From Candidatus Omnitrophota bacterium (GTDB lineage: Bacteria > Omnitrophota > Gorgyraeia > JAHJTE01), in NCBI GenBank assembly GCA_018830005.1, contig JAHJTE010000001.1:709624-773623 (forward strand): a stretch of 64,000 nt of DNA. The letters are read 5' to 3'. Below the pieces are notes generated by a model. That model was not told the origin of the DNA. It ran no database searches and was given only the letters and a program-made list of their open reading frames with translations. The position numbers and the translations under genes were made by a program. Shown here piece by piece: positions 19,612 through 57,362 of this stretch (its first letter is position 1; each line of letters begins with the position of its first letter).

Positions 19612-21057
19612 ATGAAAAAAAATAATAAAAAATCCAATTTATCCTCGAGAAGCTTAAAGGTAAAGCTTAAGTTGGCGTTTGCGCTATCTTCGGTTATCCC
19701 TATTTTGATTTTACTTAATATGCTAAACCCTAGCTTGTTTAGTTTTACTTTCAGGCTTAACGAGATACAGCCGATAACTATTAAGTTCTGGCCAATATTT
19801 ATAATTACTACAGTGATTGTAAGTCTGGGTTATTATATCTTGAAGCTGATAATCGATCCGGTAATTTCAATAAGTCGTGATGCCAAACATATAGCCCAGG
19901 GTGATTTCGAACGCGTAATTAAGGTCGGTGCTGACAGAGGGGATGAAATCGGAGATTTGAGCTTTGCCTTAGATAAGTTAACAACGCGAATTCGTAGTTC
20001 AATGCAAGAATTGAGCCAGTACGGCGAGAAGACCAAGAAGATAAATCTGGAGATTAATAAGCGCGTAGTGGTCTTGAGTAATCTCCTGCAGATAAGCACT
20101 TTAATCTCTCAAGGCGCAAACTTAAACGAAATACTACATTTAAGTGTAGATAGGATTATGGAGGTGGGTCAGTCAGAGATAGGTTTCCTGATGGTTAAAG
20201 AGCAGATGAAAAATGTATTGACGATGAGGTCTTTACGCGGCGTAGGCGCAGGGAGATTTGAAAATCTCGAAATCGCAATTGGCGAAAATCCTCTGGCGGA
20301 TTTAATCTATAGAAAAGAGGTTATAATCCTTGATCAAAACAACAAAGATACATCAAGAGAGGTTAACGCCTGGCAGGAAAAGTTTGCAATGCGCAATGCC
20401 GTCATAATACCTTTGTTTGTACGCGGCGATCCCTTGGGTATTATCTGTATTGCCAATAATAAAGAGAACTTTTCTTATACTTCTGACGATTTAGAAGTGA
20501 TTGAAATCTTCGTTAAACAGATAGCGATTGCGCTTGAGACAGATTTCTTACATTTCAGAGTCCAAAAATTAGAGGTAAAGGATGCCCTTACCGGACTTTA
20601 CAATGAAAGATTTGTAAAGGCACGTTTAGATGAAGAGATCAAGAGGGCAATTATTTACCAGAGGCCATGTGCCTTCCTCTTGTTCAATGTTGACAATTTC
20701 AAACGTTACTATACACTTTTTGGCGGCCTTGCCTCTGAGGCCGCACTTAAAAGGATTGCTCTCGTTCTGGAAGATAGTATTACTGATGTAGATAGGGTGG
20801 GGCGTTTTGGTGATAATGATTTTGCTGTAATTTTACCTGAGCGTAATAAAAAAGAGGCCAATAAGATTGCAGAAGATATAAGAAAGAAACTAGAGTTTGT
20901 TTTTAAAGAAGAACCAGACGCCAACAAGAGAATAACCTTAAGCGGTGGCGTAAGCGAAAATCCCATTGATGGCGTTTCTGCACAAGAGCTGGTTGTTAAA
21001 GCGCGGCAGATGCTGATGGAAGCAAAGGCAAGAGGCAAGAACCAGATAAAGGGTTAG
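19612..21057 (+). CDS. membrane HAMP-GAF protein with a degenerate GGDEF domain (GGEEF replaced by GDNDF, no RxxD I-site)
   Basis: Two TM helices and a HAMP region (DLSFALDKLTTRIRS), then a GAF-like region. The GGDEF fold is recognisable (LTGLYNERF...FNVDNFKRY...GRFGDNDFAVILPE) but the catalytic motif is altered. Confidence 0.8.
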   Translation: MKKNNKKSNLSSRSLKVKLKLAFALSSVIPILILLNMLNPSLFSFTFRLNEIQPITIKFWPIFIITTVIVSLGYYILKLIIDPVISISRDAKHIAQGDFERVIKVGADRGDEIGDLSFALDKLTTRIRSSMQELSQYGEKTKKINLEINKRVVVLSNLLQISTLISQGANLNEILHLSVDRIMEVGQSEIGFLMVKEQMKNVLTMRSLRGVGAGRFENLEIAIGENPLADLIYRKEVIILDQNNKDTSREVNAWQEKFAMRNAVIIPLFVRGDPLGIICIANNKENFSYTSDDLEVIEIFVKQIAIALETDFLHFRVQKLEVKDALTGLYNERFVKARLDEEIKRAIIYQRPCAFLLFNVDNFKRYYTLFGGLASEAALKRIALVLEDSITDVDRVGRFGDNDFAVILPERNKKEANKIAEDIRKKLEFVFKEEPDANKRITLSGGVSENPIDGVSAQELVVKARQMLMEAKARGKNQIKG

Positions 21058-21066
21058 AGTTTAACT

Positions 21067-21510
21067 ATGAGCGCATTTAAAAAAGTAATGGCAAAACAAT
21101 TAGGGGAGCTTCTGATTGAACGTGGAGTTATCGGGGCTAAACATCTTGAGAAGGCGCTTGAAGTTCAGAAGGAAAAAGGCGGTCTTATCGGGGAAATCCT
21201 TGTAGAATTAGGTTTTGCAAAGGAAGAGGATATAGCTCATGCATTAACTGCCCAGTACGGGTTTCCATACTTACCTTTAAAAAATTATGATATAGATTTA
21301 GAAATTGTCCGGATTATCCCTAAGAATGTAGCTATCCAGTACTGTCTTATTCCCATAGATAAGATCGGCACCTCGCTAACAGTTGCTATGTCTAATCCAT
21401 TAAATGTTCAGGCGATCGAGGATATAGAACTACTTACCAAGTGCAAGGTTCAGACTTTTGTAAGCACCCCTTCAGATATTAGAGAGACAATAAAGAAATA
21501 TTATAAATAA
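21067..21510 (+). CDS. stand-alone MshEN/T2SSE_N domain protein, a putative c-di-GMP receptor
   Basis: Two tandem copies of the MshEN-type motif, KQLGELLIERGVIGAKHLEKALEVQ and LIGEILVELGFAKEEDIAHALTAQ. No ATPase domain. Confidence 0.75.
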   Translation: MSAFKKVMAKQLGELLIERGVIGAKHLEKALEVQKEKGGLIGEILVELGFAKEEDIAHALTAQYGFPYLPLKNYDIDLEIVRIIPKNVAIQYCLIPIDKIGTSLTVAMSNPLNVQAIEDIELLTKCKVQTFVSTPSDIRETIKKYYK

Positions 21511-21558: not shown

Positions 21559-23274
21559 ATGGTTTCTTTAAAAGAACGCCTTACAGAGATCCTGATTAAG
21601 AATAAAATCATCACGCGGGAGAACCTGGATAAGGCGATTGCAGTTCAGTCTAAAGAAGGCGGAAGGCTGAGCGATATCCTTGTGCGTTTAGGATATGTAG
21701 ACCAGAAAGACTTAGTTATTGCCTTAAGTGAAGGTTTGGGCCTGCCCCCGATTGACCTAAACCGTTTCAAGATTGAATCGGAAGTAACTAAACTTATCCC
21801 CCAGGAGACCGCAAGGCACTACCAGATAATCCCTGTATCAAAAATGGGTAATACGCTTACCTTGGCTATGGCCGATCCTCTCAACGTCTTTGCTATTGAT
21901 GCAGTCAAGACCTTGACAGGTTTTGATATAAATCCGATTATCGCAAAGCCGGAAGATGTGATGAATGCAATTACTCAATATTACGGAGAGGACTCTTACC
22001 AGGCTATAGAAGATATAATTGATGAAATGGGTAAAGATAGCGAGCTGGAAGTTATTAAGGATGAAAAGATAGATTATGCAGACGTGCAGGAATTGGCTCG
22101 TCTTACTCAAGAAGCCCCTGTAATTAAGATTACCAATCTTTTCCTAAAGCAGGGAATTGAAGCCAGGGCCTCGGATATATTAATTGAGCCGTTTGAGAAA
22201 AGTGTTCGCGTTAGGCTACGTGTTGATGGCATGTTAAAAGAGATTGAATCCCCGCCTAGATCTTTACATGCTTCCGTAGTCTCTAGGATTAAGGTAATGT
22301 CTGGAATGGATATAGCCGAACATAGGCTTCCTCAGGATGGAAGATTTAAGATCAAGCTAGAAGGCAAGGATGTTGATTTTCGTGTTTCAGTTTTGCCTTC
22401 TAGCTTTGGAGAAAAGGTTGCTTTGCGTATCCTGGATAAAACTACGGCAAAATTGGATATTACCCAACTTGGATTTGACAAGCATGCCGTGGAGGTTCTA
22501 AAAAAAAGTGCCCTTAAGCCGCATGGTATGATTCTTACCTGCGGCCCTACAGGAAGCGGTAAGACAACCACGTTATATTCTTTGCTTAAATTTATCGATG
22601 CCCCAGATAAGAACATTATTACAGTCGAAGACCCTGTAGAATACCAACTTCGCGGCATTAATCAGGTCACTGTAAATGTAGATATTGGACTTACATTTGC
22701 CAGTTGCCTGCGTTCTATCTTGCGGCAGGATCCTGACATTATTATGGTAGGTGAAATTCGCGATTTTGAAACAGTCGATATTTCAATTAAGGCCGCGTTA
22801 ACAGGCCATCTTGTTTTGAGTACGTTACATACTACTACAGCTCCTGGTTCTGTGATTCGGCTTGGAGATATGGGCGTAGAACCATTTTTAATTACCTCTA
22901 GTGTTATTGCTGTTATGTCCCAGAGGCTACTACGCAAGCTTTGCGAACGCTGTAAAGAAGAGATAGTAGTTAAAGAAGAGGTCTCCAAGAAGGTAGGCAT
23001 AAAGACAGGGACAAAGGTCTTTGCTGCAACGGCCTGCAAGAATTGTCTTAATACTGGTTATGCTGGCCGTTTAGGAATAATAGAGATTTTAGAATTAACC
23101 CCCAAGGTTAAAGAGTTGATACTTGGTCGGGTGCCGGAGGATGTGATTAAGAAAGCTGCTCGCGAGGAAGGGATGAAGACACTTCAGGAGGCTGGTATAG
23201 AAAAAGTTATCGAGGGCCTCACTTCTATAGACGAAGTTGTGCGCCTTACAGCGCCTGATAAAGAAATGGCATAA
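21559..23274 (+). CDS. pilB: type IV pilus assembly ATPase PilB/GspE (copy 1)
   Basis: A GspE-N domain, Walker A GPTGSGKTT, Asp and His boxes and a C4 Zn motif CERC...CKNC. Confidence 0.9.
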   Translation: MVSLKERLTEILIKNKIITRENLDKAIAVQSKEGGRLSDILVRLGYVDQKDLVIALSEGLGLPPIDLNRFKIESEVTKLIPQETARHYQIIPVSKMGNTLTLAMADPLNVFAIDAVKTLTGFDINPIIAKPEDVMNAITQYYGEDSYQAIEDIIDEMGKDSELEVIKDEKIDYADVQELARLTQEAPVIKITNLFLKQGIEARASDILIEPFEKSVRVRLRVDGMLKEIESPPRSLHASVVSRIKVMSGMDIAEHRLPQDGRFKIKLEGKDVDFRVSVLPSSFGEKVALRILDKTTAKLDITQLGFDKHAVEVLKKSALKPHGMILTCGPTGSGKTTTLYSLLKFIDAPDKNIITVEDPVEYQLRGINQVTVNVDIGLTFASCLRSILRQDPDIIMVGEIRDFETVDISIKAALTGHLVLSTLHTTTAPGSVIRLGDMGVEPFLITSSVIAVMSQRLLRKLCERCKEEIVVKEEVSKKVGIKTGTKVFAATACKNCLNTGYAGRLGIIEILELTPKVKELILGRVPEDVIKKAAREEGMKTLQEAGIEKVIEGLTSIDEVVRLTAPDKEMA

Positions 23275-23280: not shown

Positions 23281-24981
23281 ATGGCAACTTTAAGCAATAA
23301 GATATTAGAGATTTTAGTTAAGACAAAGCGCATCTCCCTTAAGCAGAAGCAGCAGGTTTTGTCTTTAAAGAAGCAAAAGGATTCATCAATCAAAGATATC
23401 CTTATTAATGAGGGTTTTATTTCTAATAAGGAGTTGTTAGCAGTTCTTTCAGAAGAATTTAGATTACCGCCTTTAGATCTATCTAAATATAAAATTGATG
23501 CGGAGATAATCAAGATTATTCCCGAACGCCTGGCTCGCCAGCATCATCTTATCTGCGTTTCTCAGATTGGCTCTACGATTACTGTGGCAATGAGTGATCC
23601 TTTAAATATATTCGCGCTTGATGATTTGCGGATTTTGACAAAAAAGGAAATTGATCCTGTAATATCAACTGAAAGCGATATAAACAAAGCTATTGAAAAA
23701 TATTATTGCGGGGACGTGGTTGCTATTTCTTCTTTGCTTGATGAGGGAGATAAAACAGCAGAGGTATTAAGTGTTGATGGCGAACAATCAAATATATCAG
23801 CTGTTATCGAAGAGAGCCAAAAGGCCCCGATTGTAAAAGTCGTTGATTTGATTATTGCCGAGGCCCTTTATAAACGGGCTTCTGATATTCATGTTGAGCC
23901 GGCTGAAGAAGGTTTACGAGTGCGTTACCGCATAGATGGCAATCTGTATGACACTCTTACATTACCGAAAAGCAATCAAAATGCTATTTTAGCGCGACTT
24001 AAGATTATGAGCGGTTTAGACATAACCGAATCAAGGCTTCCGCAAGACGGACGCTTTAAGATTAGGTTGGAATCAAAGGAGATAGACTTTCGTGTTTCTG
24101 CACTGCCGACGACATTTGGTCAAAAGTTCGTTCTGAGGGCATTGGATAAATCAAGTCTTTCTATGGGGTTGGATAAGCTTGGTTTCTTTCCAGAGAGATT
24201 GGCGCTGTTTAAACAGGCGATAGCAAAGCCTTATGGAATGATTTTAGTTACAGGGCCAACAGGAAGCGGGAAATCTACAACCCTTTATTCTATATTGAAT
24301 CGATTGAATACGATGGAAAAAAACATAATTACTGTTGAAGACCCTGTTGAGTATCAGATTGAGGGCATCACCCAGATACATGTAAAACCTGAGATTGGCC
24401 TTACCTTTGCTGCTGGATTACGTTCCATACTGCGTCAAAGTCCGGATATCATTATGATTGGTGAGATTCGCGATTCCGAGACAGCAGATATAGCTGTGCG
24501 TGCTTCTCTAATTGGGCAGTTAGTTTTTTCTACCTTGCACACAAATGATGCTGCTGGCGCAATCACACGTTTAATTGATATGGGGGTTGAGCCATTTCTT
24601 GTTGCCTCTTCAATTATTATGACCTGTGCACAGAGGCTTTGTCGTAAAATATGTAATGCCTGCAAAGAGCCAGTCGAAATCCCGGACAGTATCCTTAAAA
24701 AATTAACTCTAAGGCCAACCAAGACAGATACCTTTTATGCAGGACGCGGCTGTAACCACTGCAACAATACTGGTTATTTTGGCAGATTGGCAGCTTTAGA
24801 AGTCTTGATGATTGACGATAATATATGCAGGATGATTTTAAAAAAATCTTCTAGTGATCAGATTAAGGAATATGCAATTAAAAATAATGGCATGCAGACA
24901 ATCTGGGATGATATGATGCGTAAGCTTAAAATGGGTGCTACTACTTACGAGGAAGTTTTACGCGTAGCGATTGATACATAA
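23281..24981 (+). CDS. pilB: type IV pilus assembly ATPase PilB/GspE (copy 2, tandem paralogue)
   Basis: Same architecture as copy 1. Walker A GPTGSGKST, C4 motif CRKICNAC...CNHC. Confidence 0.9.
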   Translation: MATLSNKILEILVKTKRISLKQKQQVLSLKKQKDSSIKDILINEGFISNKELLAVLSEEFRLPPLDLSKYKIDAEIIKIIPERLARQHHLICVSQIGSTITVAMSDPLNIFALDDLRILTKKEIDPVISTESDINKAIEKYYCGDVVAISSLLDEGDKTAEVLSVDGEQSNISAVIEESQKAPIVKVVDLIIAEALYKRASDIHVEPAEEGLRVRYRIDGNLYDTLTLPKSNQNAILARLKIMSGLDITESRLPQDGRFKIRLESKEIDFRVSALPTTFGQKFVLRALDKSSLSMGLDKLGFFPERLALFKQAIAKPYGMILVTGPTGSGKSTTLYSILNRLNTMEKNIITVEDPVEYQIEGITQIHVKPEIGLTFAAGLRSILRQSPDIIMIGEIRDSETADIAVRASLIGQLVFSTLHTNDAAGAITRLIDMGVEPFLVASSIIMTCAQRLCRKICNACKEPVEIPDSILKKLTLRPTKTDTFYAGRGCNHCNNTGYFGRLAALEVLMIDDNICRMILKKSSSDQIKEYAIKNNGMQTIWDDMMRKLKMGATTYEEVLRVAIDT

Positions 24982-25001: not shown

Positions 25002-26201
25002 ATGACAGTTTTCAAATATACGGCGAAAAATAGATCAGGTAAAAAGATCTCAGGCATGCTAGAAGCTGATAATCAGAATCTGGCTATTGAGACTTTGCGT
25101 AAGAAAGAATTAATACCTATTAGCCTATCGGAAGAGAAGGCAAAACGGCGTGTTAGTGGGCGCAAGGTTAAATTGGATGATCTTGTTATTTTTTCTCGTC
25201 AGCTGGCTACGATGGTTGATTCAGGAATTCCCCTTGTTCAGGCATTAAGCATTCTAGGAGAGCAGGTGCAAAAGGAAAATTTCCGGCAGGTGATTTTAAG
25301 GATACGTCAAGATATCGAAGAAGGTGCAGGTTTTTGTGATGCCCTGGCTAAGCACACAGCAGTATTTTCTCCGCTTTACATTAATATGGTAAAGGCAGGA
25401 GAAGCAAGTGGTTTATTGAATGAGATATTAGATAGGTTAGCTAATTATTTAGAAAAGGCAAGCGCCTTGCAGAGAAAGGTAAAATCTTCCTTGACCTATC
25501 CAATCGTGGTAATTGCCATGGCCTTAATTATTACTATCTTTTTGCTGGTTAAGGTTGTTCCAACATTTAGAGGTATATTTGATATGCTTGGCGGTACCTT
25601 GCCTTTACCTACGCGGATCTTGATTGGTTTCAGCGATATGTTGCGGCATTCATTCTTGTATATTGTAATTTTCTTAGTTGGTGTAGTATTCCTGCTTAAG
25701 AAATGGTCAAAGACTCCAAGGGGGAGAAGGACCATTGATTATTACCTACTCAAGCTTCCTGTCTTTGGCCCACTTTTAAAGAAAGTAGCAATAGCTAAGT
25801 TCAGCCGGACACTTTCTACGTTAGTAAGAAGCGGCGTTCCTATCTTAGGTTCCTTAGAGATTGTAGGCAAGACAGCAGGCAATAAAATAGTTGAAGAGGC
25901 ATTAGATAACGCGCGCAAGTCTATTAAAGAAGGTGAGCCTATTTCCGGCCCCTTGAGTGAAAGCGATGCGTTTCCGCCTATGGTAGTAAGGATGATTGCT
26001 GTAGGCGAACAGACAGGCGAGTTGGAGAAGATGTTAAGCAAGATCGCTGACTTTTATGATGAGCAGGTTGATGCCACAGTAAGTTCTATGACAAGTTTAA
26101 TTGAGCCAATGGTCATCGCCTTTTTAGGTGTTATTATCGGTGGCATTGTAGTCTCATTATTCTTGCCCATATTTAAGATTACGGAACTATTGGGAAGATG
26201 A
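25002..26201 (+). CDS. pilC: type IV pilus platform protein PilC (GspF family)
   Basis: Two GspF repeats and three TM helices. It follows the pilB genes. Confidence 0.9.
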   Translation: MTVFKYTAKNRSGKKISGMLEADNQNLAIETLRKKELIPISLSEEKAKRRVSGRKVKLDDLVIFSRQLATMVDSGIPLVQALSILGEQVQKENFRQVILRIRQDIEEGAGFCDALAKHTAVFSPLYINMVKAGEASGLLNEILDRLANYLEKASALQRKVKSSLTYPIVVIAMALIITIFLLVKVVPTFRGIFDMLGGTLPLPTRILIGFSDMLRHSFLYIVIFLVGVVFLLKKWSKTPRGRRTIDYYLLKLPVFGPLLKKVAIAKFSRTLSTLVRSGVPILGSLEIVGKTAGNKIVEEALDNARKSIKEGEPISGPLSESDAFPPMVVRMIAVGEQTGELEKMLSKIADFYDEQVDATVSSMTSLIEPMVIAFLGVIIGGIVVSLFLPIFKITELLGR

Positions 26202-26275: not shown

Positions 26276-26305
26276 TTGACTTTGTAATAGTTAGGTGTCT
26301 ATAAT
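26276..26305 (+). promoter_or_regulatory. sigma70-type promoter TTGACT-N18-TATAAT for the riboswitch-pilA transcript
   Basis: TTGACT at 26276-26281, TATAAT at 26300-26305, about 50 nt upstream of the GEMM element. Confidence 0.5.
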
Positions 26306-26352
26306 ATATTTTACAGGGCCTAATTTTTATGGTATACTTGAGGTAACATTGA

Positions 26353-26468
26353 AAAAGGCAAACCAGTCGTAAGGCTGGGACGCAAAGCTAAAGGGCCTTG
26401 TGAAAGGGTAGCCAGTTACCAATGAGAATAACCTATTTCAGGTGACTGGAATAGGTTTTATTTTTTTG
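26353..26468 (+). ncRNA. c-di-GMP-I (GEMM) riboswitch-like leader with a terminator expression platform (copy 1)
   Basis: GGCAAACC-AGTC-GTAA(GNRA)-GGCTGG-GACGCAAAGC-TAAAGGGCC matches the GEMM core (Vc2: GGCAAACCAUUCGAAAGAGUGGGACGCAAAGCC). It is followed by hairpin CCTATT...AATAGG plus a T-run at 26430-26468. Confidence 0.8.
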
Positions 26469-26578
26469 GCCGGGACTAATAAATGTCAAGCCAGAGGAAA
26501 ACGAAATTATTATTATTTTTCTAGAAACTGGGTTGATATGATAAGTTCAATCAAGGCCAAGAGAGGAGGTTGTTAATT

Positions 26579-27007
26579 ATGAGAAACAGATCAGGTTTTA
26601 CCTTGGTTGAAATCATGATTGTTGTTGCTATTATTGCTTTATTGGCAGCCATAGCAATACCTAACCTGTTGCGTGCTCGTCTCAATGCTAACGAGTCTGC
26701 ATCGATTGCTGCTATGCAGACGCTTTCTACTGCAGCCCAGAGTTATCGTTCAGCTAATCCTAGTTATCCTACTAACTTAGCTGCTTTGTCTAACGCAACT
26801 CCACCTTATATTGATTCTGTATTAGCAGGTGGAACAAAATCAGGCTATGCATTTATTTTGACAGGTACCACAAATGCATTTACTGCAACTGCTGCTCCTA
26901 GCACTGTGGGCACTACGGGTAATAGATATTTCTTTGTTGATGAAAGTGGTGTTGTCAGGTATGCTAGTGGCGCTGCAGCTACATCTGCAAGCAGCCCAAT
27001 TGAATAA
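26579..27007 (+). CDS. pilA: type IV major pilin (PilA-like), leader MRNRSG followed by FTLVEIM
   Basis: GGAGG RBS 9 nt upstream of the ATG at 26579 (the track start at 26570 is a TTG). Class III signal peptide G|FTLVEIMIVVAIIALLAAIAIPNL, 142 aa, Ser/Thr-rich C-terminal tail. Confidence 0.85.
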   Translation: MRNRSGFTLVEIMIVVAIIALLAAIAIPNLLRARLNANESASIAAMQTLSTAAQSYRSANPSYPTNLAALSNATPPYIDSVLAGGTKSGYAFILTGTTNAFTATAAPSTVGTTGNRYFFVDESGVVRYASGAAATSASSPIE

Positions 27008-27035
27008 GGATTCAACTTAAGGATTTACGAGAAAA

Positions 27036-27066
27036 GGCGCTTCTTTTTAAGAGGCGCCTTTTTTCT
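27036..27066 (+). terminator. intrinsic terminator after pilA
   Basis: GGCGCTTCT-ttta-AGAGGCGCC hairpin followed by TTTTTTCT. Confidence 0.65.
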
Positions 27067-27086: not shown

Positions 27087-28856
27087 ATGAAAAGATCACA
27101 ACAAATTATACTTATTATCCTTGTCGGTTTATTGTTTTATTTTAATAGTCTTTTTAATGGGCTTGTTTGGGATGATGAGTTTTTAATCAAGGACAACCCT
27201 TATATCAGAAGCATTCCGACTGCTTTTTCTTACGCCTTTTCTAATGATCTATTCCCGGGAGAGCTACTATTTAAGCGGACTAATTATTATCGGCCCCTGC
27301 AGACACTAAGTTACTCTCTAGATTTTTTTATCTGGAAAGATACGCCCTTTGGTTTTCATCTCGCTAATTTAATCCTGCATATTATTAATGCCCTTTTAAT
27401 ATATTTAATTATTTCCTGTCTTTATAATCTGCCTTTGGTTTCTTTTGTTTGTGCCTTATTCTTTGTAGCCCATCCTATTCATCATGAGGCAGTGAGCTAT
27501 ATCTCTGGCCGTGCAGATTTATTGGCAGCATTTTTTATCTTGAGCTCTTTTTATTGCTTCCTTAAATATAGACTCGAGAATATAGCTGTGCGGCGCAATT
27601 ATTTCCTTGTTTTATCATTTATTTGTTTCTTTTTAGCACTTCTTTCTAAGGAGTATGCACTTATCCTGCCTTTCCTATTTTTATCCTTTGATTTTTCTTT
27701 TCAAAAATTAAATAGAAAAAATCTAGGCCAATACGTTTTCTTCTTACCCCTGATATTCCTCTTTATCATGTTGCGACTTTCTGCTTTAGGATTGGATAAT
27801 TCATTGCTGGGCGGCAGATATGCACATTTACTTTGGCAGGAATTGCCGATTCGTTTTTTTGGTTTTATAAAAAGCATACCGCTTTACTTAGGTATTTTAA
27901 TTTTTCCGGTTGATTTGCATATGCGCAGAGCCTTTCCCAGACCTGCAGGCCTTTTCGATCCTTTAGTATGGATTGGTATTTTTATTTTGCTCAGTTGTTA
28001 CTTCATTTTTTATAAAAGGAGAAAACAGGAGCCGCTTTATTTATTTTTGTTTCTTTGGTTTTTGATTCCTGTAGTTTCTCAATCACAGCTAACGCTTTCC
28101 GGATTTGGCTTTGCCGAGCACTTTTTATACCTTGCCTCAATGGGCGTCTTCTTTGCTTTTGCAAAGGTTTTTGTGGGCCTTTTTCTTAAATTTAAAGCAA
28201 GGGCGCAAAAACAGAGATTTATCGTTACTATACTTTTAATCTTACTTAGTTTTTATGGCAGCTTGACGAGTGTCCATAATCTTAACTGGAAGGATAGTCT
28301 GACATTCTATAAGTGGACGCTGAAGTTTTCACCCGAGAGCATTAAGTTGCGCATAAATCTAGCCAGAGAGTATATTGCCCTAGGTAGGGATGATCTGGCC
28401 TTAGTTGAATTCTTACGTGCTAAAAAGTTATTAGAGCAAGTGGAGGTATCTAAATATAAAGATAAACCAATTTTAGATTGGACTCTGAATGAGGCGATAG
28501 TAGTCGGCTATTACAATGTGGCTGTGCTTCATGCCAGCCAGAAAGATTATACAAGGGCGGAGCAGGAATATCGGCTGTCCCTTGCGATTAAGCCAAATTT
28601 TAATAAGGCACGTAATAATCTAGCTGCCTTATTGACCAAGCTAGGCAGAGATAAAGAGGCGATAGAGCAATTGTCGCTTGTTTTGAGTTCTGATCCAGAA
28701 GATTTAAAGGCATATTATAATCTGGGCGCAATCTTAGCGAATCTAGGCGAAGATGAAAAGGCAAGGCAGGTCTGGCAAGATGGCTTAAAGATAGATCCGG
28801 ATGATGCCAAGATTGGCGATGCGCTTGCGAGGCTCCTGGAAGAGAAGAAGAGATGA
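27087..28856 (+). CDS. PMT/TMTC-like GT-C glycosyltransferase domain (DUF1736-like, NGLVWDDEF motif) fused to a C-terminal TPR array
   Basis: About 11 TM helices and an acidic DD(E/F) motif in the first periplasmic loop, as in protein O-mannosyltransferases. C-terminal TPR repeats (YYNVAVLHASQKDYTRAEQEYRLSLAIKPN...). Confidence 0.65.
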   Translation: MKRSQQIILIILVGLLFYFNSLFNGLVWDDEFLIKDNPYIRSIPTAFSYAFSNDLFPGELLFKRTNYYRPLQTLSYSLDFFIWKDTPFGFHLANLILHIINALLIYLIISCLYNLPLVSFVCALFFVAHPIHHEAVSYISGRADLLAAFFILSSFYCFLKYRLENIAVRRNYFLVLSFICFFLALLSKEYALILPFLFLSFDFSFQKLNRKNLGQYVFFLPLIFLFIMLRLSALGLDNSLLGGRYAHLLWQELPIRFFGFIKSIPLYLGILIFPVDLHMRRAFPRPAGLFDPLVWIGIFILLSCYFIFYKRRKQEPLYLFLFLWFLIPVVSQSQLTLSGFGFAEHFLYLASMGVFFAFAKVFVGLFLKFKARAQKQRFIVTILLILLSFYGSLTSVHNLNWKDSLTFYKWTLKFSPESIKLRINLAREYIALGRDDLALVEFLRAKKLLEQVEVSKYKDKPILDWTLNEAIVVGYYNVAVLHASQKDYTRAEQEYRLSLAIKPNFNKARNNLAALLTKLGRDKEAIEQLSLVLSSDPEDLKAYYNLGAILANLGEDEKARQVWQDGLKIDPDDAKIGDALARLLEEKKR

Positions 28857-36874: not shown

Positions 36875-38729
36875 AAAATTAGCAATTTCTATAAGTATTT
36901 TCTTTTTCTTATTTTTGATATTACAAAATACTTCAGGTCCTGAGTCATTAGTTATCGCAGAGGAATTAGAGCTGGAGGATTTATCGCAACTCTTTGAGGA
37001 AGAGATTGATGTAGAAATTTTTGGCCTTGAGGATGAGGTTTCTTCTGAGATTATGGCTGAAGAGCTTAATGAAGAGGAATTAAAGGCGGTAGAGGCTGAG
37101 TTTGAAGAGGCTGAAGAAATCTTTGGCCTAGGTCAAGAAGAGGAGGCCTTGGATATCCCAGAAGAGGTTGCAGCGGAAATTTTGGCAGAAGAGCTCCCTA
37201 TTGTTACAGAATCTGAGTTGTCGTCTGAATTAGACCAGCTTGAGCCGGCAGGAAAGAAGCTGGCCGAAGAGGTTACTGAGGTGCAAGAGGGGAAGACGCA
37301 AGAGGAGGAGTTACCGGTTACCAAGGTATCCCTTGATTTTAAAGAGGCAGATATTAGAAATGTGTTAAGAATCCTTTCTTATAAAAGTGGAGTTAATATT
37401 GTTGCAAGCCCTGAAGTAACCGGCTTAGTTACTATAAGACTTACTGATGTTCCTTGGGATAAGGCATTAGATGTGGTGCTTGATACTTATGGTTTCGGAC
37501 ATGAACGCAAGGAAAACATTATTACGGTTTATCCTATGGAAATGCTTACTGCAAGAAAAAGCCAAGAGCAGGCGTTAGCGGCAGTTCAGCCTACAGTAAC
37601 TAAAGTTATAAAACTAAAGTTTATTGATGCTACTGATATGAAGAAGGCGCTTGATCCACAGCTATCTCCGCGCGGCAGGGTTACTGTTTTGGAGGCAACC
37701 GGTCAAGCTGGATGGGAATTTGGCGGCTCAGAGTTAGGTAAAAGAGCGCGCATAGGTGAAAAAACGAGCAGATCGAAAATGCTCATTATCTCTGATATCC
37801 CTCCGGTATTAGAAAGGCTAGAGGAGGTTATTGCTGAATTAGATGTGCGGCCAGAGCAGGTGTTAATTGAAGTGAGACTTTTGGAAGTAAATCGCGATAA
37901 ATTATCTGACTTAGGTATGGAGTGGGGTACAGGCTCTGATGGTACAGGCTTTATCGAGACAAGCGGTAAGGGTTTAGACGGAAGCTCAGAGACTCAACTT
38001 AGCGTCCAAGGCGAAACGCTTCAAGTATCGCCTTCGACGTTTTCTTCTAAGTCTGGTTTTTCTGGAATTACACCGTTTAATGCTGGCCTTACTGCTACAT
38101 TCCAAAAGATTACCGGCAGTCAGTTTCAGGCTATATTACATGCTGTAGCAGAGGACGTAGAAGTAAATACACTTTCAGCACCACGCATCTTGACATTGAG
38201 TGATCAGGAGGCGACTATCCTAATAGGAAGCAAATATCCTATTCTTACCTCTGATGTAAGTACAGAGGCAGGGGCGACAGTTACCACAACACTTGATTAC
38301 TATGAGGATATCGGAATCCAGCTTAATGTTGTGCCTCAGGTTAATGACGATGGCTATATTAATCTAATCGTACATCCTGCGGTAACTTCTATTTCAAGCT
38401 ACATAGGGGACAATTCCTATCCTGTAATAATAACCCGTGAGGCAGAGACACAGCTTTTGATTAAAGATGGCGAGACAATAGTCATTGGTGGACTGCTTAA
38501 GGATGTAAAGGGAGAGTCAGAAATTGGCATTCCATTTTTAAGTAAGATCCCTATTCTAGGTTTTTTATTTAGGCGCACGGTAGTAGATATAGAAAAGATC
38601 GATCTTTTAATATTTATAACTGCAAGAGTAGTTAAATCCGAAGGGGACCTGATAACGTTTAAACAAAGCGTAGAAACTCCGGTCAGAAATTTAATACCAG
38701 CAGAGCCCGTAATTAAAGAAGAAGAGTAA
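36858..38729 (+). CDS. pilQ: type IV pilus secretin PilQ with an acidic Glu-rich N-terminal extension
   Basis: GTG start after an AAGGAGGG RBS. AMIN/N0-N1-like domains and a C-terminal secretin signature (IVIGGLLKD...EIGIPFLSKIPILGFLF). Confidence 0.9.
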   Translation: MQVKIKKLAISISIFFFLFLILQNTSGPESLVIAEELELEDLSQLFEEEIDVEIFGLEDEVSSEIMAEELNEEELKAVEAEFEEAEEIFGLGQEEEALDIPEEVAAEILAEELPIVTESELSSELDQLEPAGKKLAEEVTEVQEGKTQEEELPVTKVSLDFKEADIRNVLRILSYKSGVNIVASPEVTGLVTIRLTDVPWDKALDVVLDTYGFGHERKENIITVYPMEMLTARKSQEQALAAVQPTVTKVIKLKFIDATDMKKALDPQLSPRGRVTVLEATGQAGWEFGGSELGKRARIGEKTSRSKMLIISDIPPVLERLEEVIAELDVRPEQVLIEVRLLEVNRDKLSDLGMEWGTGSDGTGFIETSGKGLDGSSETQLSVQGETLQVSPSTFSSKSGFSGITPFNAGLTATFQKITGSQFQAILHAVAEDVEVNTLSAPRILTLSDQEATILIGSKYPILTSDVSTEAGATVTTTLDYYEDIGIQLNVVPQVNDDGYINLIVHPAVTSISSYIGDNSYPVIITREAETQLLIKDGETIVIGGLLKDVKGESEIGIPFLSKIPILGFLFRRTVVDIEKIDLLIFITARVVKSEGDLITFKQSVETPVRNLIPAEPVIKEEE

Positions 38730-38823: not shown

Positions 38824-39132
38824 TTGAAAGCGAAGGTTATTATCGAAATAAAATTTTCAAAGTGCGGCCTAATGCGTTACATATCTCATTTGGATTTGTT
38901 GCGGTTATTTAGGCGTGCAGCAAGCAGGGCAAAGATTGCCCTAGAGTTAACACGCGGCTTTAATCCGCATCCAAAAATAAGTATAAATAGGGCATTGAAA
39001 TTAGGCGAAGAATCCGATGCGCTTTTTTGTCAATTTGGACTAGAAGCAAAAATGGATACACAGGAGTTTGCAAGCCGTTTGCAGCAGGAGTTACCCGAAG
39101 GGATAAGCATAAAGCAAGCCAAACTAATATGA
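38824..39132 (+). CDS. TIGR03936/DUF2344-like 'radical-SAM-linked' protein, short form
   Basis: IEIKFSKCGLMRYISHLDLLRLFRRAASRA...GFNPHPKIS matches the family N-terminus. The start is proposed at the in-frame TTG at 38824 (the track start at 38782 is also a TTG). The stop overlaps the rng ATG (ATGA). Confidence 0.5.
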   Translation: MKAKVIIEIKFSKCGLMRYISHLDLLRLFRRAASRAKIALELTRGFNPHPKISINRALKLGEESDALFCQFGLEAKMDTQEFASRLQQELPEGISIKQAKLI

Positions 39133-40625
39133 CTAAATTTATTTTAATTAATTCTGGAACGCAAGAGAATCGCGTTGCTATGCTTAAGGATGGAAAACTG
39201 GAAGAATTTTTCATAGAGAGAGTCAATAAGCGAACTATTGTCGGTAATATTTATAAAGCCAGAATTGATTCAATAGCAACATCTTTAAACGCTGCCTTTG
39301 TCGATATCGGATTAGGAAAGAAGGGTTTTCTTTATTTATCCCAGCCTGCTTTTGGTCCTGAATTCAATGATGATGATGTTGATAATTTAACTCTTGCAGC
39401 TTCCCCCCAGGTTAAAAAAAACGGGCGTTTAAATGTAGGTCAGGAGATTCTTGTCCAGGTAGTAAAAGAGCAATTTGGCACCAAGGGGCCGCGGCTGACA
39501 ACCAAAATATCATTGCCCGGCAGATACTTGGTAGTAATACCATATAGCAATAATATCGGTATTTCCCGGCGTATTGACGAGGATGCTGAGAGAAAGCGCT
39601 TAAAGGATCTTATGCATTCGATGCGGCTTCCTTCTGATTTTGGATTTGTTATTCGCACAGTAAGCGTAGGCACAGACAAGAGGCAGTTGCATCGAGATGT
39701 AAAGTTTTTAATTAAACTCTGGCATAGAATCGCGCAGATCTCTCATCGTAGTAAAACGCCAGCATTAATTCATGAAGAATTCAATCTAATAATGCGCATT
39801 GTACGTGATTCATTTACTGAAGATGTTACGAATATATTCATAGATTCTAAGAGAGATTTTCATGCTATTAGAAGATTTGTCCGTATCTATTCTCCTAGTC
39901 TATTGCGTAAGGTTCTGTTTTACCGAGGCAAGGAACCATTATTTGAGAAGTTTAAAATAGAAGAAAAGATCGATGAGATTTATGAGCGCAAAGTAAATTT
40001 GAAATCAGGTGGTTATCTATATATTGAACCCACAGAAGGTCTAGTGGCTGTTGATGTTAATAGCGGAAGATTCAAAGGCCCTACTGCTGCAAGGGGTGTT
40101 AAGGCCCAGGAAGAGATGGCATTTAAGGTCAATATGGAAGCCGCAGATGAGATTGCCAGACAATTGAGACTGAGGGATTTGGGTGGGCTTATTGTAATTG
40201 ATTTTATTGATATGATAAAGGATGTTCACCGCAAGCGAGTATTTACCCACTTTAAGCAATTACTCAAACATGATAGGGCAAAGACAGATGTAATCAGAAT
40301 ATCTGAGTTTGGAATTCTGGAGATGACACGTCAGAAGCAGCGTTTAAGCGCTGAGAAGGTGTCTTTTCAAATCTGTCCTTATTGTGAGGGTAGGGGTAGA
40401 GTTAGAACAGTGGCCACAGTTGCTATCGCAGTTTTACGCATGCTTAATAAAGTCTTAAAAGAGCAAAAAAAGGGAAAACTATTAATTAGTTTACATCCAG
40501 ATGTCGTTGAATTCTTAAATCTGCAATATAAAGATACCTTAAAGGATTTACAGCAAAGATTCAAATCTTCCTTAATTCTTAATCCTAGTCCACATCTGCA
40601 CTTAGAGAAAATCATTATAGAATAA
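39129..40625 (+). CDS. rng: ribonuclease G/E-family endoribonuclease
   Basis: The start is taken at MTKFILIN. S1 domain and the RNase E/G catalytic core (VAVDVNSGRF, DLGGLIVIDFIDM). Confidence 0.9.
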   Translation: MTKFILINSGTQENRVAMLKDGKLEEFFIERVNKRTIVGNIYKARIDSIATSLNAAFVDIGLGKKGFLYLSQPAFGPEFNDDDVDNLTLAASPQVKKNGRLNVGQEILVQVVKEQFGTKGPRLTTKISLPGRYLVVIPYSNNIGISRRIDEDAERKRLKDLMHSMRLPSDFGFVIRTVSVGTDKRQLHRDVKFLIKLWHRIAQISHRSKTPALIHEEFNLIMRIVRDSFTEDVTNIFIDSKRDFHAIRRFVRIYSPSLLRKVLFYRGKEPLFEKFKIEEKIDEIYERKVNLKSGGYLYIEPTEGLVAVDVNSGRFKGPTAARGVKAQEEMAFKVNMEAADEIARQLRLRDLGGLIVIDFIDMIKDVHRKRVFTHFKQLLKHDRAKTDVIRISEFGILEMTRQKQRLSAEKVSFQICPYCEGRGRVRTVATVAIAVLRMLNKVLKEQKKGKLLISLHPDVVEFLNLQYKDTLKDLQQRFKSSLILNPSPHLHLEKIIIE

Positions 40626-50499: not shown

Positions 50500-52227
50500 T
50501 TATTTAGTAGGAGGCCTTTCTGGTATGAGGAAAACACACACCTTGTTTCTACCTGTCTCTTTGGCTTTATAAAGCGCCTTGTCAGCGAAAGAGATTAATT
50601 CTTTAGGGGTCTGGGCATCTGTCTCAGTTAAGGATGCGATTCCTATACTGATTGTTACCTTTAGAGGCTGGTTCCCTTTATAAGGGAAGTTAAATTCTTC
50701 AATAGATTTTCTTAGACGTTCAGCGTAGATACTGGCGCCTTTTGCAGTTGTATTAGGCAAAATACAGCAGAATTCTTCACCGCCGTAACGGGCCACGACA
50801 TCCACTCTGCGGCTGCTCTCCTGGATGATCCTAGCAACATTCTTTAAGATTACATTTCCTTCTTCATGCCCGTAAGTGTCGTTTACTTTTTTAAAGTGGT
50901 CAACATCCATTATCAAAAATGTAAGTTGAGTATTTTCCTCTTTTGCGTGTGCAAATTCAGAATCAAGTTTAAGTATTAGATAGCGATGTACAAAGAGTCC
51001 TGTGAGCCCATCAGTAATCGCCATAGTTTTTAAGATTGCTGCCTCAACCAATAAGCGCATATATTTGTATGTCTCCGTGCCCAGATACAAAAATGCGGCA
51101 ATAAATATCGGACCAAAGTAGTCAAAGGATAAGTTTTGATAGGAAAGCAGAAAGGAAACAAGCATAAGCCCTAAAAGCTCTAGCGCCAAAAGAAGGGAAC
51201 CTTTAAGGATTGAGAGTTTATAGGTGAATATTGCGGTGCAAATTGCAACTATTAGAATCAACAGGATTGAGAAAATCTCAGGCGTCTCTTTTAGAAAATT
51301 TCCTGATAAGTACATTAGGATTTCATTGGCATTGATTACTACCCCTGGCATCAGGCCCAGGGGGGTAGGGTAGACATCGTGAAAGATTTCAGCAGTCGTG
51401 CCGACGAGAATAATCTTTTTGTGGATACTTGCTTTACTAGCAGTTTTATTGATTATTTTATGAAAGGGGATGATTTCAAAGTCTTTATTTTTTGCCTGGT
51501 AATTAATCAATGCTGTGCCTTTTTCTGAAAGAGGAATGATTACTTGCTTTGTTGTTTTTGCCACATCTTTTAGATTGATAAGCATTCTGCGATTATTAAG
51601 TGAGACGTCGTTTTTAATATCGCTTTCGTGATAGCGCAAAAAGGTCTTTAGTCCGAAAGAGGTTTTTAGTATTCCCGGAAGGTCTTTTCTTGGAAACAGG
51701 AGGCGGCAATTACGCACGGTTAAATCTTTATCGCGTGTCTTGTTAACAAAGCCAAAGCCTAAGGCTGCTTTTTGCAAAGGCAGATAAGGTTCATTATAAC
51801 TTTTATCCGGGGCAATGTAACTTGCAAGAATTACATTGCCTGCATTTTTAATTGCCTCAGCCAGTGCCGAATCATCATCCTTATTATTGCTTTCTCCTGT
51901 AAATACCATATCCAGACTAATGATCTTTGGTCTGTATTCATTTAGGTTATCAATAAATTCACTCAAGAAACTTCGTGACCAGGGCCATTTTTTCTGCAAG
52001 ACCATGAATGATTCGTCATCAATAACAACAAGGCTGATCTCTTTTAATTCTTTGGGTTTAGGTTTTAACTGATAAGTAAGGCGATTAAACAAATCAGCAG
52101 TTTTTAACGAAAGGATATTTAAAAAAGTAATTTTATGGGAGGAAAAAGAATAAGCCAGGCTTATAATCATCGCCACACAGATTACCTTTATCAGATTCTT
52201 ATCCCAGGATATCTTTTTCTTTTTCAT
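50500..52227 (-). CDS. CHASE2 sensor-domain diguanylate cyclase (canonical GGEEF, RxxD I-site present)
   Basis: N-terminal periplasmic CHASE2-like region, three C-terminal TM helices, GGDEF domain with DVDHFKKVNDTYGHEEGN and RRVDVVARYGGEEF. Confidence 0.85.
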   Translation of the reverse strand: MKKKKISWDKNLIKVICVAMIISLAYSFSSHKITFLNILSLKTADLFNRLTYQLKPKPKELKEISLVVIDDESFMVLQKKWPWSRSFLSEFIDNLNEYRPKIISLDMVFTGESNNKDDDSALAEAIKNAGNVILASYIAPDKSYNEPYLPLQKAALGFGFVNKTRDKDLTVRNCRLLFPRKDLPGILKTSFGLKTFLRYHESDIKNDVSLNNRRMLINLKDVAKTTKQVIIPLSEKGTALINYQAKNKDFEIIPFHKIINKTASKASIHKKIILVGTTAEIFHDVYPTPLGLMPGVVINANEILMYLSGNFLKETPEIFSILLILIVAICTAIFTYKLSILKGSLLLALELLGLMLVSFLLSYQNLSFDYFGPIFIAAFLYLGTETYKYMRLLVEAAILKTMAITDGLTGLFVHRYLILKLDSEFAHAKEENTQLTFLIMDVDHFKKVNDTYGHEEGNVILKNVARIIQESSRRVDVVARYGGEEFCCILPNTTAKGASIYAERLRKSIEEFNFPYKGNQPLKVTISIGIASLTETDAQTPKELISFADKALYKAKETGRNKVCVFLIPERPPTK

Positions 52228-52435
52228 TGTAAAATTAGTCTAGCATAAAAGTGGGGTTTAGGCAAGGCTAAAATCTCTGAGTATGTTTTTATAACTTTAA
52301 CATTAGCAATAGGTTGCATTAAGGATATCTTTTGTTTTCAGCTTGAAATCATGCATTGTCTATGTTATACTTAAATTGTTAGGAAATAAGCTCGAAAAAA
52401 CCCTGAATCTAGTGTTCTGTATAGGGCATTAGTCG

Positions 52436-52604
52436 GAAAAGGCAAACCATTTGAAAGAATGGGGCGGATTGAAGTGTCTGGCTTGATAAGAGCCGCAAAG
52501 CTAAAAGAGCCTACGTCCTGAATTTTTAGGATAGGGTAGTCAGCTGCCGAGATTAAGGTTTGTAACCCTATTCTTTTGTAAAAAAATAGGGTTTTTTATT
52601 TTTA
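52436..52604 (+). ncRNA. c-di-GMP-I (GEMM) riboswitch-like leader with terminator (copy 3, extended variant)
   Basis: GGCAAACC-ATTT-GAAA-GAATGG-GGCGG[...GGCTTGATAAGAGCC]GCAAAGC. Terminator AACCCTATTC...AATAGGGTT plus T-run directly before the ATG at 52617. Confidence 0.8.
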
Positions 52605-52616: not shown

Positions 52617-53282
52617 ATGAAAAGAAAAGGTTTTAGTTCATTAGAGTTAATAATTGGCTTAGCCCTTACGGCTATTATGGCTACTATGGGCATTGTTAAT
52701 TTCAGTAGCCAGGATGCGTTATTGCTTGATGCTGCAGCCCAAAAAGTTGTCTCTGACTTAAATTACGCCAGGATGTTGGCTATTGACATGGGAGAGCAAA
52801 GCGAATATACTTATTCTGGAGGCGAAGCAGGCGAGGAGGCAGGCAACTTTGTGGTTATGGATTTTAGTGATGAGGCTTCAACTCTTCCTAGTTCTTATCG
52901 CGCTGTTCCTGCGTTACAGCTGCCTGCAGAAACTGGAGATCCTGTTGGCACAAGAATTAGTGTGTTATATGAACCGGTAGTGAGAAATATTACAGAAAAA
53001 GTTGAACTTTTTTTTCCTAGTGAAGATGATTTTAAACAAGTCAAGATACAATCTGTAGACTTTGGCGATGACGGATCAGGCGGCGCTTATAACGCTGTTC
53101 GTTTTGAAGGACCTACAGGCAGACCAATGAACGGTACCTGGGTTATGGGGAATGATGAAAATGCTTATTTTTCAACTGATACAGGATTGGGAAGTTCAGG
53201 TGGCATTATTGTTGTAGAGTATAATGGCAGAACTAAGATAGTCAGGATTTCTCGTATCGGAAGGATTACTATTGAAAATTAA
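52617..53282 (+). CDS. prepilin-type pilin-like protein, KG|FSSLELIIGLALT
   Basis: ATG with a GAGG RBS. Class III signal peptide. 221 aa with a Gly-rich C-terminal domain. Confidence 0.7.
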   Translation: MKRKGFSSLELIIGLALTAIMATMGIVNFSSQDALLLDAAAQKVVSDLNYARMLAIDMGEQSEYTYSGGEAGEEAGNFVVMDFSDEASTLPSSYRAVPALQLPAETGDPVGTRISVLYEPVVRNITEKVELFFPSEDDFKQVKIQSVDFGDDGSGGAYNAVRFEGPTGRPMNGTWVMGNDENAYFSTDTGLGSSGGIIVVEYNGRTKIVRISRIGRITIEN

Positions 53283-53790: not shown

Positions 53791-53791
53791 T

Positions 53792-54331: not shown

Positions 54332-54334
54332 CCA

Positions 54335-56995: not shown

Positions 56996-57175
56996 TTTCT
57001 GTATTTGTAACTTTAATATAGCAATATGTTGTATAAGATAAAAAAATATTGCTTAGCCTTGAAATATAACAGGAGGTATGTTATATTTTATGTTGACAAT
57101 TTAGAAATGAAGCGAAAAGTCCCGAATCTAGTAGTTTAGGTGTCGGGATCCCTTCTAAAATGCTAAATATTTTAG

Positions 57176-57343: not shown

Positions 57344-57362
57344 TGTGAGGATAAGACTAAAG

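Follow-up and report, generated by a model that had tools for sequence, protein, structure and literature searches.

The association of the GEMM riboswitch motif with pilus genes has been known since 2007, and pilM, pilO, pilQ, pulF and pili assembly genes, including those of Geobacter, were already listed in the GEMM set of Weinberg et al. (PMC1950547). This motif, the class I aptamer for cyclic di-GMP (c-di-GMP-I), is composed of two adjacent hairpins separated by an AAA linker, the first hairpin having a 2-bp and a 6-bp stem, a 3-nt internal loop and a GNRA tetraloop (PMC1950547). In Vc2, located in the tfoY leader of Vibrio cholerae, the ligand is contacted by G20, A47 and C92, and the interhelical C-G pair (C44-G83) is universal (PMC4744006). 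All seven functional class I riboswitches of Clostridioides difficile are terminator-based OFF switches; in one of them, Cd1 (Cdi-1-3), a class I aptamer followed by an intrinsic terminator turns the flgB operon OFF by termination, and in the same species Cdi-2-4, located before pilA1, gates expression of the major type IV pilin by way of a terminator located in the 5' untranslated region (5' UTR) (PMC6366702). Here we analyse a 64,000-nucleotide stretch of DNA (hereafter the window) from a Candidatus Omnitrophota bacterium (GenBank assembly GCA_018830005.1, contig JAHJTE010000001.1, positions 709,624 to 773,623 of the forward strand), which contains five c-di-GMP-I aptamers, RS1 to RS5, and we focus on RS1, located between pilC and the pilin gene pilA. 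RS1 has in common with Cd1 the combination of a class I aptamer and an intrinsic terminator, with Cdi-2-4 the predicted gating of a major type IV pilin gene by c-di-GMP through a 5' UTR terminator (PMC6366702), and with Vc2 the core (GGCAAACC...GGGACGCAAAGC...GUUACC), the G20/A47/C92 and C44-G83 equivalents and the GNRA hairpin (PMC4744006).

To identify the aptamers, the window was scanned with the full Rfam collection at gathering thresholds. The scan gave exactly five matches, all on the + strand and all belonging to the c-di-GMP-I clan (CL00126), with E-values from 3e-5 to 3e-14 (match spans in Table 1). An earlier reading of the same DNA, made from the letters and referred to below as the first-pass annotation, had placed a GEMM leader between a promoter and pilA, which agrees with the clan match at 26348-26424, its G/A/C triad and its GUAA loop. 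The four further copies that it had reported before pilin-like genes were found on the + strand from positions 32144, 52431, 57171 and 58395, all preceding pilin-like or pilus genes. It had also expected RF01051 matches at five places: all five sites were recovered, and RS2, RS3 and RS4 matched RF01051 (51.8, 43.6 and 50.3 bits; gathering score 35), but for RS1 and RS5 the highest scores (66.8 and 68.9 bits, respectively) were obtained with RF03167, named c-di-GMP-I-GGC (gathering score 59), a label discussed below.

The RS1 aptamer is closed by a 5-bp helix (CAUUG/CAAUG; 26347-26351 with 26420-26424), and its core stretch GGCAAACCAGTCGTAAGGCTGGGACGCAAAGCTAAAGGGCC...GCCAGTTACC lies at 26357-26420. 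The first, GNRA-type hairpin (26358-26383) starts with the pairs G26358-C26383 and C26359-G26382, followed by an AAA internal loop and a 6-bp stem (26363-26368 with 26373-26378) capped by a GUAA tetraloop (26369-26372), and GACGCAAAGC occupies 26379-26388. An AAA linker leads to the receptor-side second hairpin (26386-26417), which has a bulged AG. The Vc2 nucleotides G20, C44, A47, G83 and C92 correspond to G26357, C26381, A26384, G26411 and C26419, respectively. A covariance model built from the five window copies, with which RS1 scores 89.6 bits, was run on the window and 80 related loci and produced an alignment of 23 copies. All 23, the window copies included, have G, A and C at the equivalents of G20, A47 and C92, C at the equivalent of C44, and the AAA linker; the bulged AG (or UG) with the G83 equivalent is seen in 22 of the aligned copies, and the remaining one, RS5, shows the bulge in the Rfam alignment. 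Copies with a GAAA loop have a CCUAA-type receptor, as best seen in RS4 with its GAAA loop and exact canonical 11-nt receptor (CCUAAG/UAUGG), and those with GUAA or GCAA (GYAA) loops, including RS1, are without a receptor, in agreement with the tetraloop/receptor rule already described for the family (PMC1950547). An exception to the GEMM first-hairpin rule is RS2, which has an 8-nt loop instead of a GNRA loop.

Neither of the in silico outcomes that would have spoken against the first-pass annotation, a lack of significant RF01051 matches or of compensatory changes between the five copies, was observed. Within the window set of five, both sides had changed in 8 of 21 pairs and 93.3% of the cells were paired; for the 23 copies the corresponding values were 13 of 21 and 92.6%, and in neither case was any of 500 shuffles as good. 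Pairing fell to 20-44% in both alignments when the partner strand was slid. However, it should be underlined that the 23-copy alignment was fitted to the same model and favours the structure, whereas the five-copy MAFFT alignment was not so fitted. The covariation and the four paralogous copies also argue against a repeat element, an explanation already held to be unlikely. According to that explanation the five copies would be a dispersed repeat or mobile element, GEMM-like by chance or descent and with no sensing function, and the promoter, core and terminator motifs common to the five cassettes could be read in this way; yet identity between copies is limited to the family core, the helices differ by compensatory changes and the peripheral elements differ widely, copies are found at orthologous positions in other genomes, and the Rfam E-values go down to 1e-13. 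We regard the repeat explanation as extremely improbable. The identity and architecture of the aptamer and terminator, the complementarity between them and their conservation are shown by the computational analysis, and RS1 is very probably a genuine, canonical c-di-GMP-I riboswitch that controls pilA through the terminator at 26430-26467.

The RF03167 label raises the question of whether RS1 and RS5 might respond to another ligand, either as GGC variants or as GEMM-Ib aptamers sensing cyclic GMP-AMP (cGAMP). As judged by the Rfam consensus lines, the only difference in the conserved core is ACGCGAA in RF03167 versus ACGCAAA in RF01051, at the A47 position. The variant was defined by Weinberg et al. 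2017; its name presumably stands for G20/G47/C92, and the definition used here is that of these two consensus lines. RS1, RS5 and all 23 copies have A at the diagnostic position, and the cmscan match line is mismatched at exactly that column. Moreover, the top label changes between RS1 orthologues in two related loci, L001, the closest relative, being matched best by RF01051 (60.6 bits) and L002 by RF03167 (65.2 bits). The label is thus the result of model competition, reflecting the short second hairpin and closing helix, in which RS1 and RS5 resemble RF03167, and not the ligand pocket. Assignment to the GGC variant was rejected on these two grounds, the lack of the diagnostic G and the changing label. 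The cGAMP-sensing variants have an A at position 20. This adenine is the subject of PMC6140456, and the GEMM-Ib assignment was rejected as well, all 23 copies having G there. Thus, although RF03167 scores highest for RS1 and RS5, a ligand other than c-di-GMP is very unlikely. Clan competition in Rfam displays the best model only, and two lower-scoring matches of the same clan, above their own thresholds, were hidden. In practice, annotators should be aware that clan competition may tag canonical c-di-GMP-I aptamers with a short second hairpin as 'GGC', and should check the diagnostic nucleotide.

Two promoters are predicted upstream of RS1 (Table 1). The distal one, TTGACT-N18-TATAAT, is the promoter that had been noted earlier, and a further, proximal promoter, common to all five cassettes, is also present. 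Both hexamers of the distal promoter and the GGTATACTT of the proximal promoter are unchanged in the spacers between the pilC and pilA orthologues of L001 and L002. From the proximal promoter, transcription is predicted to start at about 26345, which is the 5' end and foot of the aptamer closing helix. The distal promoter, the proximal promoter or both may be usable, the riboswitch being downstream of both. The Rho-independent leader terminator reported in the first-pass annotation was found as a stem (26430-26457) directly followed by the U-run tract TTTTATTTTTTT, and a good ribosome-binding site (RBS; GGAGG, 26565-26569) and a terminator of its own (hairpin 27029-27065, -25.2 kcal/mol) were likewise seen for pilA. 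The UTR segment between the leader terminator and the RBS (26466-26562, about 100 nt) is also conserved. Its ends, UUGGCC and GGCCAA, could form a closing helix (UUG(G/A)CC and GG(C/U)CAA across the orthologues) with one compensatory pair, A-U to G-C; its structure has two covarying pairs among three sequences only, and an Rfam search with this segment gave no match.

The product of pilA starts with MRNRSG|FTLVEIMIVVAIIALLAAIAIP, that is, a prepilin leader ending in G followed by F-T-L-x-E and a hydrophobic helix. It passes the thresholds of the prepilin N-terminal models, with 36.8 bits for Pfam N_methyl (cut-off 21.2) and 31.5 bits for TIGR02532 (cut-off 16.3), but stays below the equivalog cut-offs of PilA_Myxo (49.6 versus 400 bits), GspG (45.1 versus 88.85 bits) and ComGC (40.9 versus 75 bits), for which the alignment is restricted to the N-terminal helix. 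The earlier designation as major pilin therefore stands with regard to the prepilin domain, whereas the word 'major' comes from context: we infer it from the size of the protein, from the location of the gene after pilB-pilB-pilC and from the presence of a separate RBS and terminator for it.

The arrangement is conserved in related genomes. Relatives of PilC were found almost solely in metagenome-assembled genomes of Candidatus Omnitrophota, the best identities being 81% and 78%. An aptamer is located 78-507 nt after pilC in 15 of the 80 loci, these being the ones with higher PilC identity (about 63-81%), and the order pilC, aptamer, pilA is thus found in 15 related Omnitrophota genomes. Rfam's own models confirmed the aptamer at all 7 pilC-pilA loci so checked, and orthologues in the relatives match RF01051 at 50-64 bits. 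Wherever the contig continues (14 loci), the gene that comes next after the aptamer encodes a PilA orthologue of 140-148 aa with the start ...GFTLVEIMIVVAII.LLAAIAIPNLLRARL; that of L002 is 80% identical to the window PilA and has the same position. L001 and L002 have likewise conserved the RS2 cassette, which precedes a PilX-like gene and pilMNOPQ. Rfam found no aptamer after pilC in 7 lower-identity loci (58-63%) that were checked. Three of these loci have a 16S rRNA gene directly after pilC (L050 3072-3535, L020 3321-3587 and L064 2947-3037).

Eight relatives (L069, L039, L079, L044, L026, L003, L059 and L019) have a near-consensus promoter, CTTGACA-N17/18-TATAAT, 60-150 nt after the riboswitch terminator and before pilA, with the conserved spacer GGAAAGGAGGTGGTGA; in these relatives pilA is probably also transcribed independently of the riboswitch. 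At three places (L001 9300-9345, L001 13330-13368 and L046 5040-5077), the 5' junction of the aptamer has an insertion consisting of a conserved hairpin of the type GCCCGC..N..GCGGG together with CGCCA, which pairs with UGGCG. The closing-helix strand that was there originally, UCAUUGAAAA, persists in L001 upstream of the insertion.

With regard to the expression platform, terminators were located by a motif-anchored search. A complete terminator hairpin was found 3-99 nt beyond the aptamer in all 23 copies, and in none of them do the two have nucleotides in common; for RS1 the distance is 5 nt. The base of the stem is CCUA(U/C)(U/C)../..(A/G)(A/G)UAGG in every copy, the loops and linkers varying widely. 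The stem is thus conserved in sequence as well as in pairing, which suggests a second pairing partner. Antiterminators were searched for by refolding with the terminator's own pairs penalised, and two partner classes emerged. A single universal partner of the CCUAUUC arm was considered as well, namely the CUA(A/C/U)AGGG junction, the 3' half of the tetraloop receptor or the leader 5' of the aptamer, and was rejected since none of these proved general.

Class I comprises RS1, RS2 and their orthologues in L001 and L002 (six sites), with an aptamer-terminator linker of 3-7 nt. Here the 5' arm and loop of the terminator are paired with the 3' end of the aptamer (CCAGUU(A/G)CC of the second hairpin and the closing-helix 3' strand), giving duplexes of -16 to -22 kcal/mol with z = -3.4 to -7.5 relative to shuffled partners. 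The antiterminator predicted for RS1 has an upper helix in which CCAGUUACC (26412-26420, including the C92 equivalent) pairs with GGUGACUGG (26441-26449), the latter being the terminator loop and the top of the 3' arm (-13.4 kcal/mol), and a lower part in which UGAGA (26423-26427; closing-helix end and linker) pairs with UUUCA (26436-26440; part of the 5' arm). Over the wider aptamer 3' end the RS1 duplex amounts to -18.1 kcal/mol (z = -4.4 versus shuffles) and is conserved in L001 and L002. For RS2 the antiterminator is the unconstrained minimum-energy fold (z = -3.8). Class II comprises RS3, RS4, RS5 and most relatives; here the terminator arm (C)CCUAUUC pairs with GA(A/G)UGGG(G), which is the 3' strand of the GNRA hairpin and the core Gs, as in RS3, where the 5' arm CCCUAUUC pairs with GAAUGGGG of the aptamer (z = -2.8), and RS4 (z = -3.3).

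Neither class has a fold that excludes the terminator without destroying the aptamer at the same time, so stabilisation of the aptamer can only favour termination, which is the logic of an OFF switch and resembles that of the class I switches of C. difficile (PMC6366702). The effect is visible in the modelled folding of nascent RS1 RNA: for transcripts ending at 26447-26453, the free ensemble gave a probability of 0.74-0.99 for the antiterminator and 0 for the terminator, whereas with the aptamer enforced the terminator nucleated, its probability rising from 0.14 to 0.63. Since the terminator is dominant at equilibrium in both states, the switch must be kinetic. The direction of switching, like ligand binding and promoter use, is deduced from family membership, conservation and thermodynamic modelling, and with moderate confidence we favour the reading that RS1 is a canonical c-di-GMP-sensing aptamer acting as a kinetic OFF switch of pilA by attenuation at 26430-26467. 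Transcription of RS1 would begin at one or more promoters of its own, located shortly after pilC. Without ligand, the 14-bp antiterminator would trap the emerging transcript during the time that the polymerase spends on the U-run, resulting in read-through into pilA; with c-di-GMP bound, the aptamer would sequester the antiterminator strands, the terminator hairpin would nucleate and transcription would stop before pilA. The RS1 antiterminator state is favoured over the aptamer state by 7-10 kcal/mol, a gap that tight ligand binding could close. The affinity of Vc2 for c-di-GMP is tight, which is the basis for considering a gap of this size within reach. The same cassette being present on four more pilus operons, c-di-GMP would repress pilus structural components as a regulon.

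The opposite direction, in which the same aptamer would act as an ON switch and c-di-GMP would promote read-through into pilA, is biologically attractive: the pilA1 riboswitch of C. difficile activates type IV pili with c-di-GMP (PMC6366702), the PilB paralogues encoded here have MshEN domains, and in 78 of 322 GEMM instances the terminator overlaps the 3' side of the second hairpin, implying ON (PMC1950547). Such an overlap is found in none of the 23 copies, however, and the class I linkers of 3-7 nt leave no room for a separate antiterminator element. The sole structure that excludes the terminator destroys the aptamer too, and the hairpin overlapping the 3' strand of the RS1 aptamer stops 8 nt short of the U-run and so cannot itself terminate. 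An ON switch is in our opinion unlikely.

A further possibility is that the main product of the leader is a separate transcript of some 120 nt, which would serve as a c-di-GMP sponge or small RNA, or that the leader terminator is constitutive, pilA being expressed by read-through from pilC or from an unrecognised downstream promoter. That the terminator forms at equilibrium regardless of the aptamer state would fit this, as would the CTTGACA-N17-TATAAT promoter after the terminator in class II relatives and the weak promoter-like site of RS5, and a Vc2-containing small RNA in V. cholerae is reported in a preprint (bioRxiv 10.1101/617340). However, a promoter scan of the + strand at 26468-26579 revealed no promoter-like site between the leader terminator and the start of pilA, the conserved strong complementarity between terminator and aptamer would be without purpose if termination were constitutive, and the linkage of aptamer and pilA has been kept in 15 genomes. 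We therefore judge this explanation to be quite improbable.

Several points weigh against the OFF switch favoured here. As soon as 26455-26457 have emerged, the terminator prevails at equilibrium whether or not the aptamer is enforced, and in the full-length RS1 leader its probability is 0.96-0.998 whatever the state of the aptamer. The 3' strand of the antiterminator is made simultaneously with the 3' arm of the terminator, and the local hairpin may win. In class II the support is weaker (z about -1 to -3.5), and a stable local hairpin must open. The direction as such is deduced from nearest-neighbour folding and from the statistics of complementarity. In C. difficile, c-di-GMP activates type IV pili, a sign opposite to OFF control of pilins (PMC6366702), and a pilin OFF switch sits oddly with PilB ATPases bearing MshEN domains. 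Finally, the promoter located between terminator and pilA in the relatives suggests that attenuation may not be the sole route of pilA expression there.

Table 1. Coordinates of the riboswitch cassettes, pilus genes and c-di-GMP-related genes in the window (aptamer positions of RS2 to RS5 are Rfam match spans)
Feature	Position	Strand	Description
Distal sigma-70-like promoter	26276-26305	+	Predicted; TTGACT-N18-TATAAT; 11 of 12 consensus matches
Proximal extended -10 promoter	26310-26338	+	Predicted; TTTACA-N17-TATACT, TG at 26330-26331; 10 of 12 matches
RS1, c-di-GMP-I aptamer	26346-26425	+	Rfam match 26348-26424, 66.8 bits, E = 1.3e-13
RS1 antiterminator	26412-26449	+	Predicted by refolding; 14 bp in all
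Leader intrinsic terminator	26430-26467	+	12-bp stem AACCUAUUUCAG / CUGGAAUAGGUU (26430-26457), GUGA loop, then UUUUAUUUUUUU; -15.2 kcal/mol
5'-UTR segment, terminator to RBS	26466-26562	+	Conserved in L001 and L002
pilA	26579-27007	+	142 codons/aa, prepilin-type; RBS GGAGG 26565-26569, 9 nt before ATG
pilA terminator	27029-27065	+	Hairpin and U-run; fold -25.2 kcal/mol
pilC	25002-26201	+	T2SSF domain (Pfam); gene 5' of the RS1 spacer
RS2 cassette	32087-32271	+	Promoter 32087-32115, aptamer 32144-32230, terminator 32239-32271; RF01051
RS2 operon	32359-38729	+	PilX_N-like 500-aa gene, pilM, pilN, pilO, small T2SSB-like protein, secretin pilQ
RS3 cassette	52343-52603	+	Promoter 52343-52371, aptamer 52431-52551, terminator 52565 to about 52603; RF01051
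RS3 operon (minor-pilin)	52617-56917	+	Three minor pilins, then a protein of 860 aa without a Pfam match
RS4 cassette	57059-57345	+	Promoter 57059-57087, aptamer 57171-57290, terminator 57310-57345; RF01051
RS4 genes	57363-57632	+	89-aa GspG-like pilin (position given), then a 203-aa protein
RS5 cassette	58346-58530	+	Promoter 58346-58374, aptamer 58395-58484 (GAGA loop), terminator 58495-58530; RF03167
RS5 genes	58607-60831	+	569-aa protein with pilin-like N-terminus and ComP_DUS-like pilin
HAMP-GAF-GGDEF protein	19612-21057		Flanks the pilus region
Stand-alone MshEN protein	21067-21510		147 aa; directly upstream of two tandem PilB-like ATPases
PilB-like ATPase, first	21559-23274		MshEN N-terminus; in tandem with the next
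PilB-like ATPase, second	23281-24981		MshEN N-terminus
CHASE2-GGDEF protein	50500-52227	-	Flanks the pilus region

The five cassettes in the window are uniform in their arrangement (Table 1). On its + strand the 64-kb window has five occurrences of the promoter pattern TT[GT]NNN-N14-TGN-TA[TC]A[CT]T, all directly 5' of an aptamer. The terminator pattern CCTAT[TC]..[AG]ATAGG with a T-run behind it is likewise present five times, after aptamers only. The confinement of both motifs to the aptamer sites indicates that promoter, aptamer and terminator constitute one unit.

Outside the conserved core the aptamers are decorated in different ways. RS3 and RS4 have a 30-nt two-hairpin insertion in the first hairpin, on its 3' side between GAAUGG and CGC, and the first hairpins of ten relatives (L003, L006, L012, L019, L026, L039, L044, L059, L069 and L079) have insertions of 30-90 nt on the 5' side, forming 1-3 extra hairpins; the aptamers with expanded first hairpins still score above the Rfam threshold. 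RS3 and RS4 also have in common an extra 5' leader hairpin (52395-52425 and 57115-57150; ..CCCUGAAUCUAGU.. and ..UCCCGAAUCUAGU..) with compensatory stem changes. In RS4, a 13-bp hairpin at 57150-57181 (CCCUUCUAAAAUG...UAUUUUAGAAGGG) overlaps the 5' junction of the aptamer and seems to stand in for the closing helix. A weak promoter-like site is located at 58546-58574, 3' of the RS5 terminator.

The genes flanking the pilus cluster include two GGDEF proteins and three MshEN proteins, which we count as contextual support for the reading favoured here. The CHASE2-GGDEF protein has a GGEEF motif and an RxxD site and is encoded divergently from the RS3 cassette. A regular-expression search for GG(D/E)EF found none in the HAMP-GAF-GGDEF protein, which may be degenerate. 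A strict regular expression for the 24-residue c-di-GMP-binding motif of MshEN gave no match in the three MshEN domains, and by eye this motif is only partly kept, e.g. QLGELLIERGVIGAKHLEKALEVQ. No EAL or HD-GYP domains were found in the scanned open reading frames (ORFs) across the window. Between pilA and the minor pilins are two large proteins (27087-28856 and 28853-30790; 589 and 645 aa) with C-terminal TPR repeats; their position is conserved in L001 and L002, which have one and two such ORFs, and their N-terminal two-thirds are without a Pfam match. The remaining window is ordinary chromosome, with ftsQA, ileS, lspA, lgt, mreBCD, pbp2, rodA, rne, rplU, obg, rpsA and tyrS. A 116-aa ORF at 38782-39132 matches the first half of DUF2344 only (positions 3-95 of 176) and extends, in a different reading frame, into the beginning of the RNase E/G ORF (39027-40625), possibly reflecting a frameshift, an assembly error or a fused gene.

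Taken together, at least five riboswitches on pilin, minor-pilin and pilMNOPQ operons, beside GGDEF and MshEN proteins, suggest that c-di-GMP governs piliation in this lineage. The uncultivated Omnitrophota have type IV pili that are discussed in relation to attachment to, or dependence on, other cells. As a more tentative extension, which we find doubtful, the pilus structural genes of the clade might form a c-di-GMP OFF regulon composed of copies of one standard cassette, with the ligand also acting on MshEN-PilB at the protein level, and the terminated 120-nt leaders might accumulate as c-di-GMP-binding RNAs. If true, type IV pili would be under two layers of control of opposite sign, which is not known to have been described in model organisms.

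The element itself is otherwise of an ordinary and well-understood kind, and its riboswitch class is among the commonest. A full-text search of the accessible literature found no paper linking Omnitrophota with riboswitch control, and the modest novelty lies in the phylum, in how dense and uniform the cassettes are, in the OFF sign predicted for pilus genes, in the expanded first hairpins (30-90 nt) and in the pitfall of the RF03167 label. With regard to that variant, RS1 and RS5 pass its gathering score, but the G that follows ACGC in the variant is A in all copies here. In the 2007 set, predicted terminators typically overlap, with their 5' side, the second hairpin on its 3' side, in accordance with an ON model (PMC1950547), which is never the case here, and the whole pilus gene set is here distributed over at least five cassettes in 32 kb. 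Vc2 acts without a terminator (PMC6366702), and in comparison with it the second hairpin of RS1 is much shorter and lacks the 11-nt receptor, the tetraloop being GUAA and not GAAA. Cdi-2-4 has a class II fold and is an ON switch, c-di-GMP promoting pilin transcription (PMC6366702), whereas RS1 is of class I and predicted to be OFF. Cd1, finally, controls flagellar genes in a Firmicute and has been shown experimentally to be OFF (PMC6366702), whereas RS1 precedes a pilin gene in Omnitrophota, its OFF direction is predicted, and its putative antiterminator is formed by the loop and 3' arm of the terminator against the 3' strand of the aptamer.

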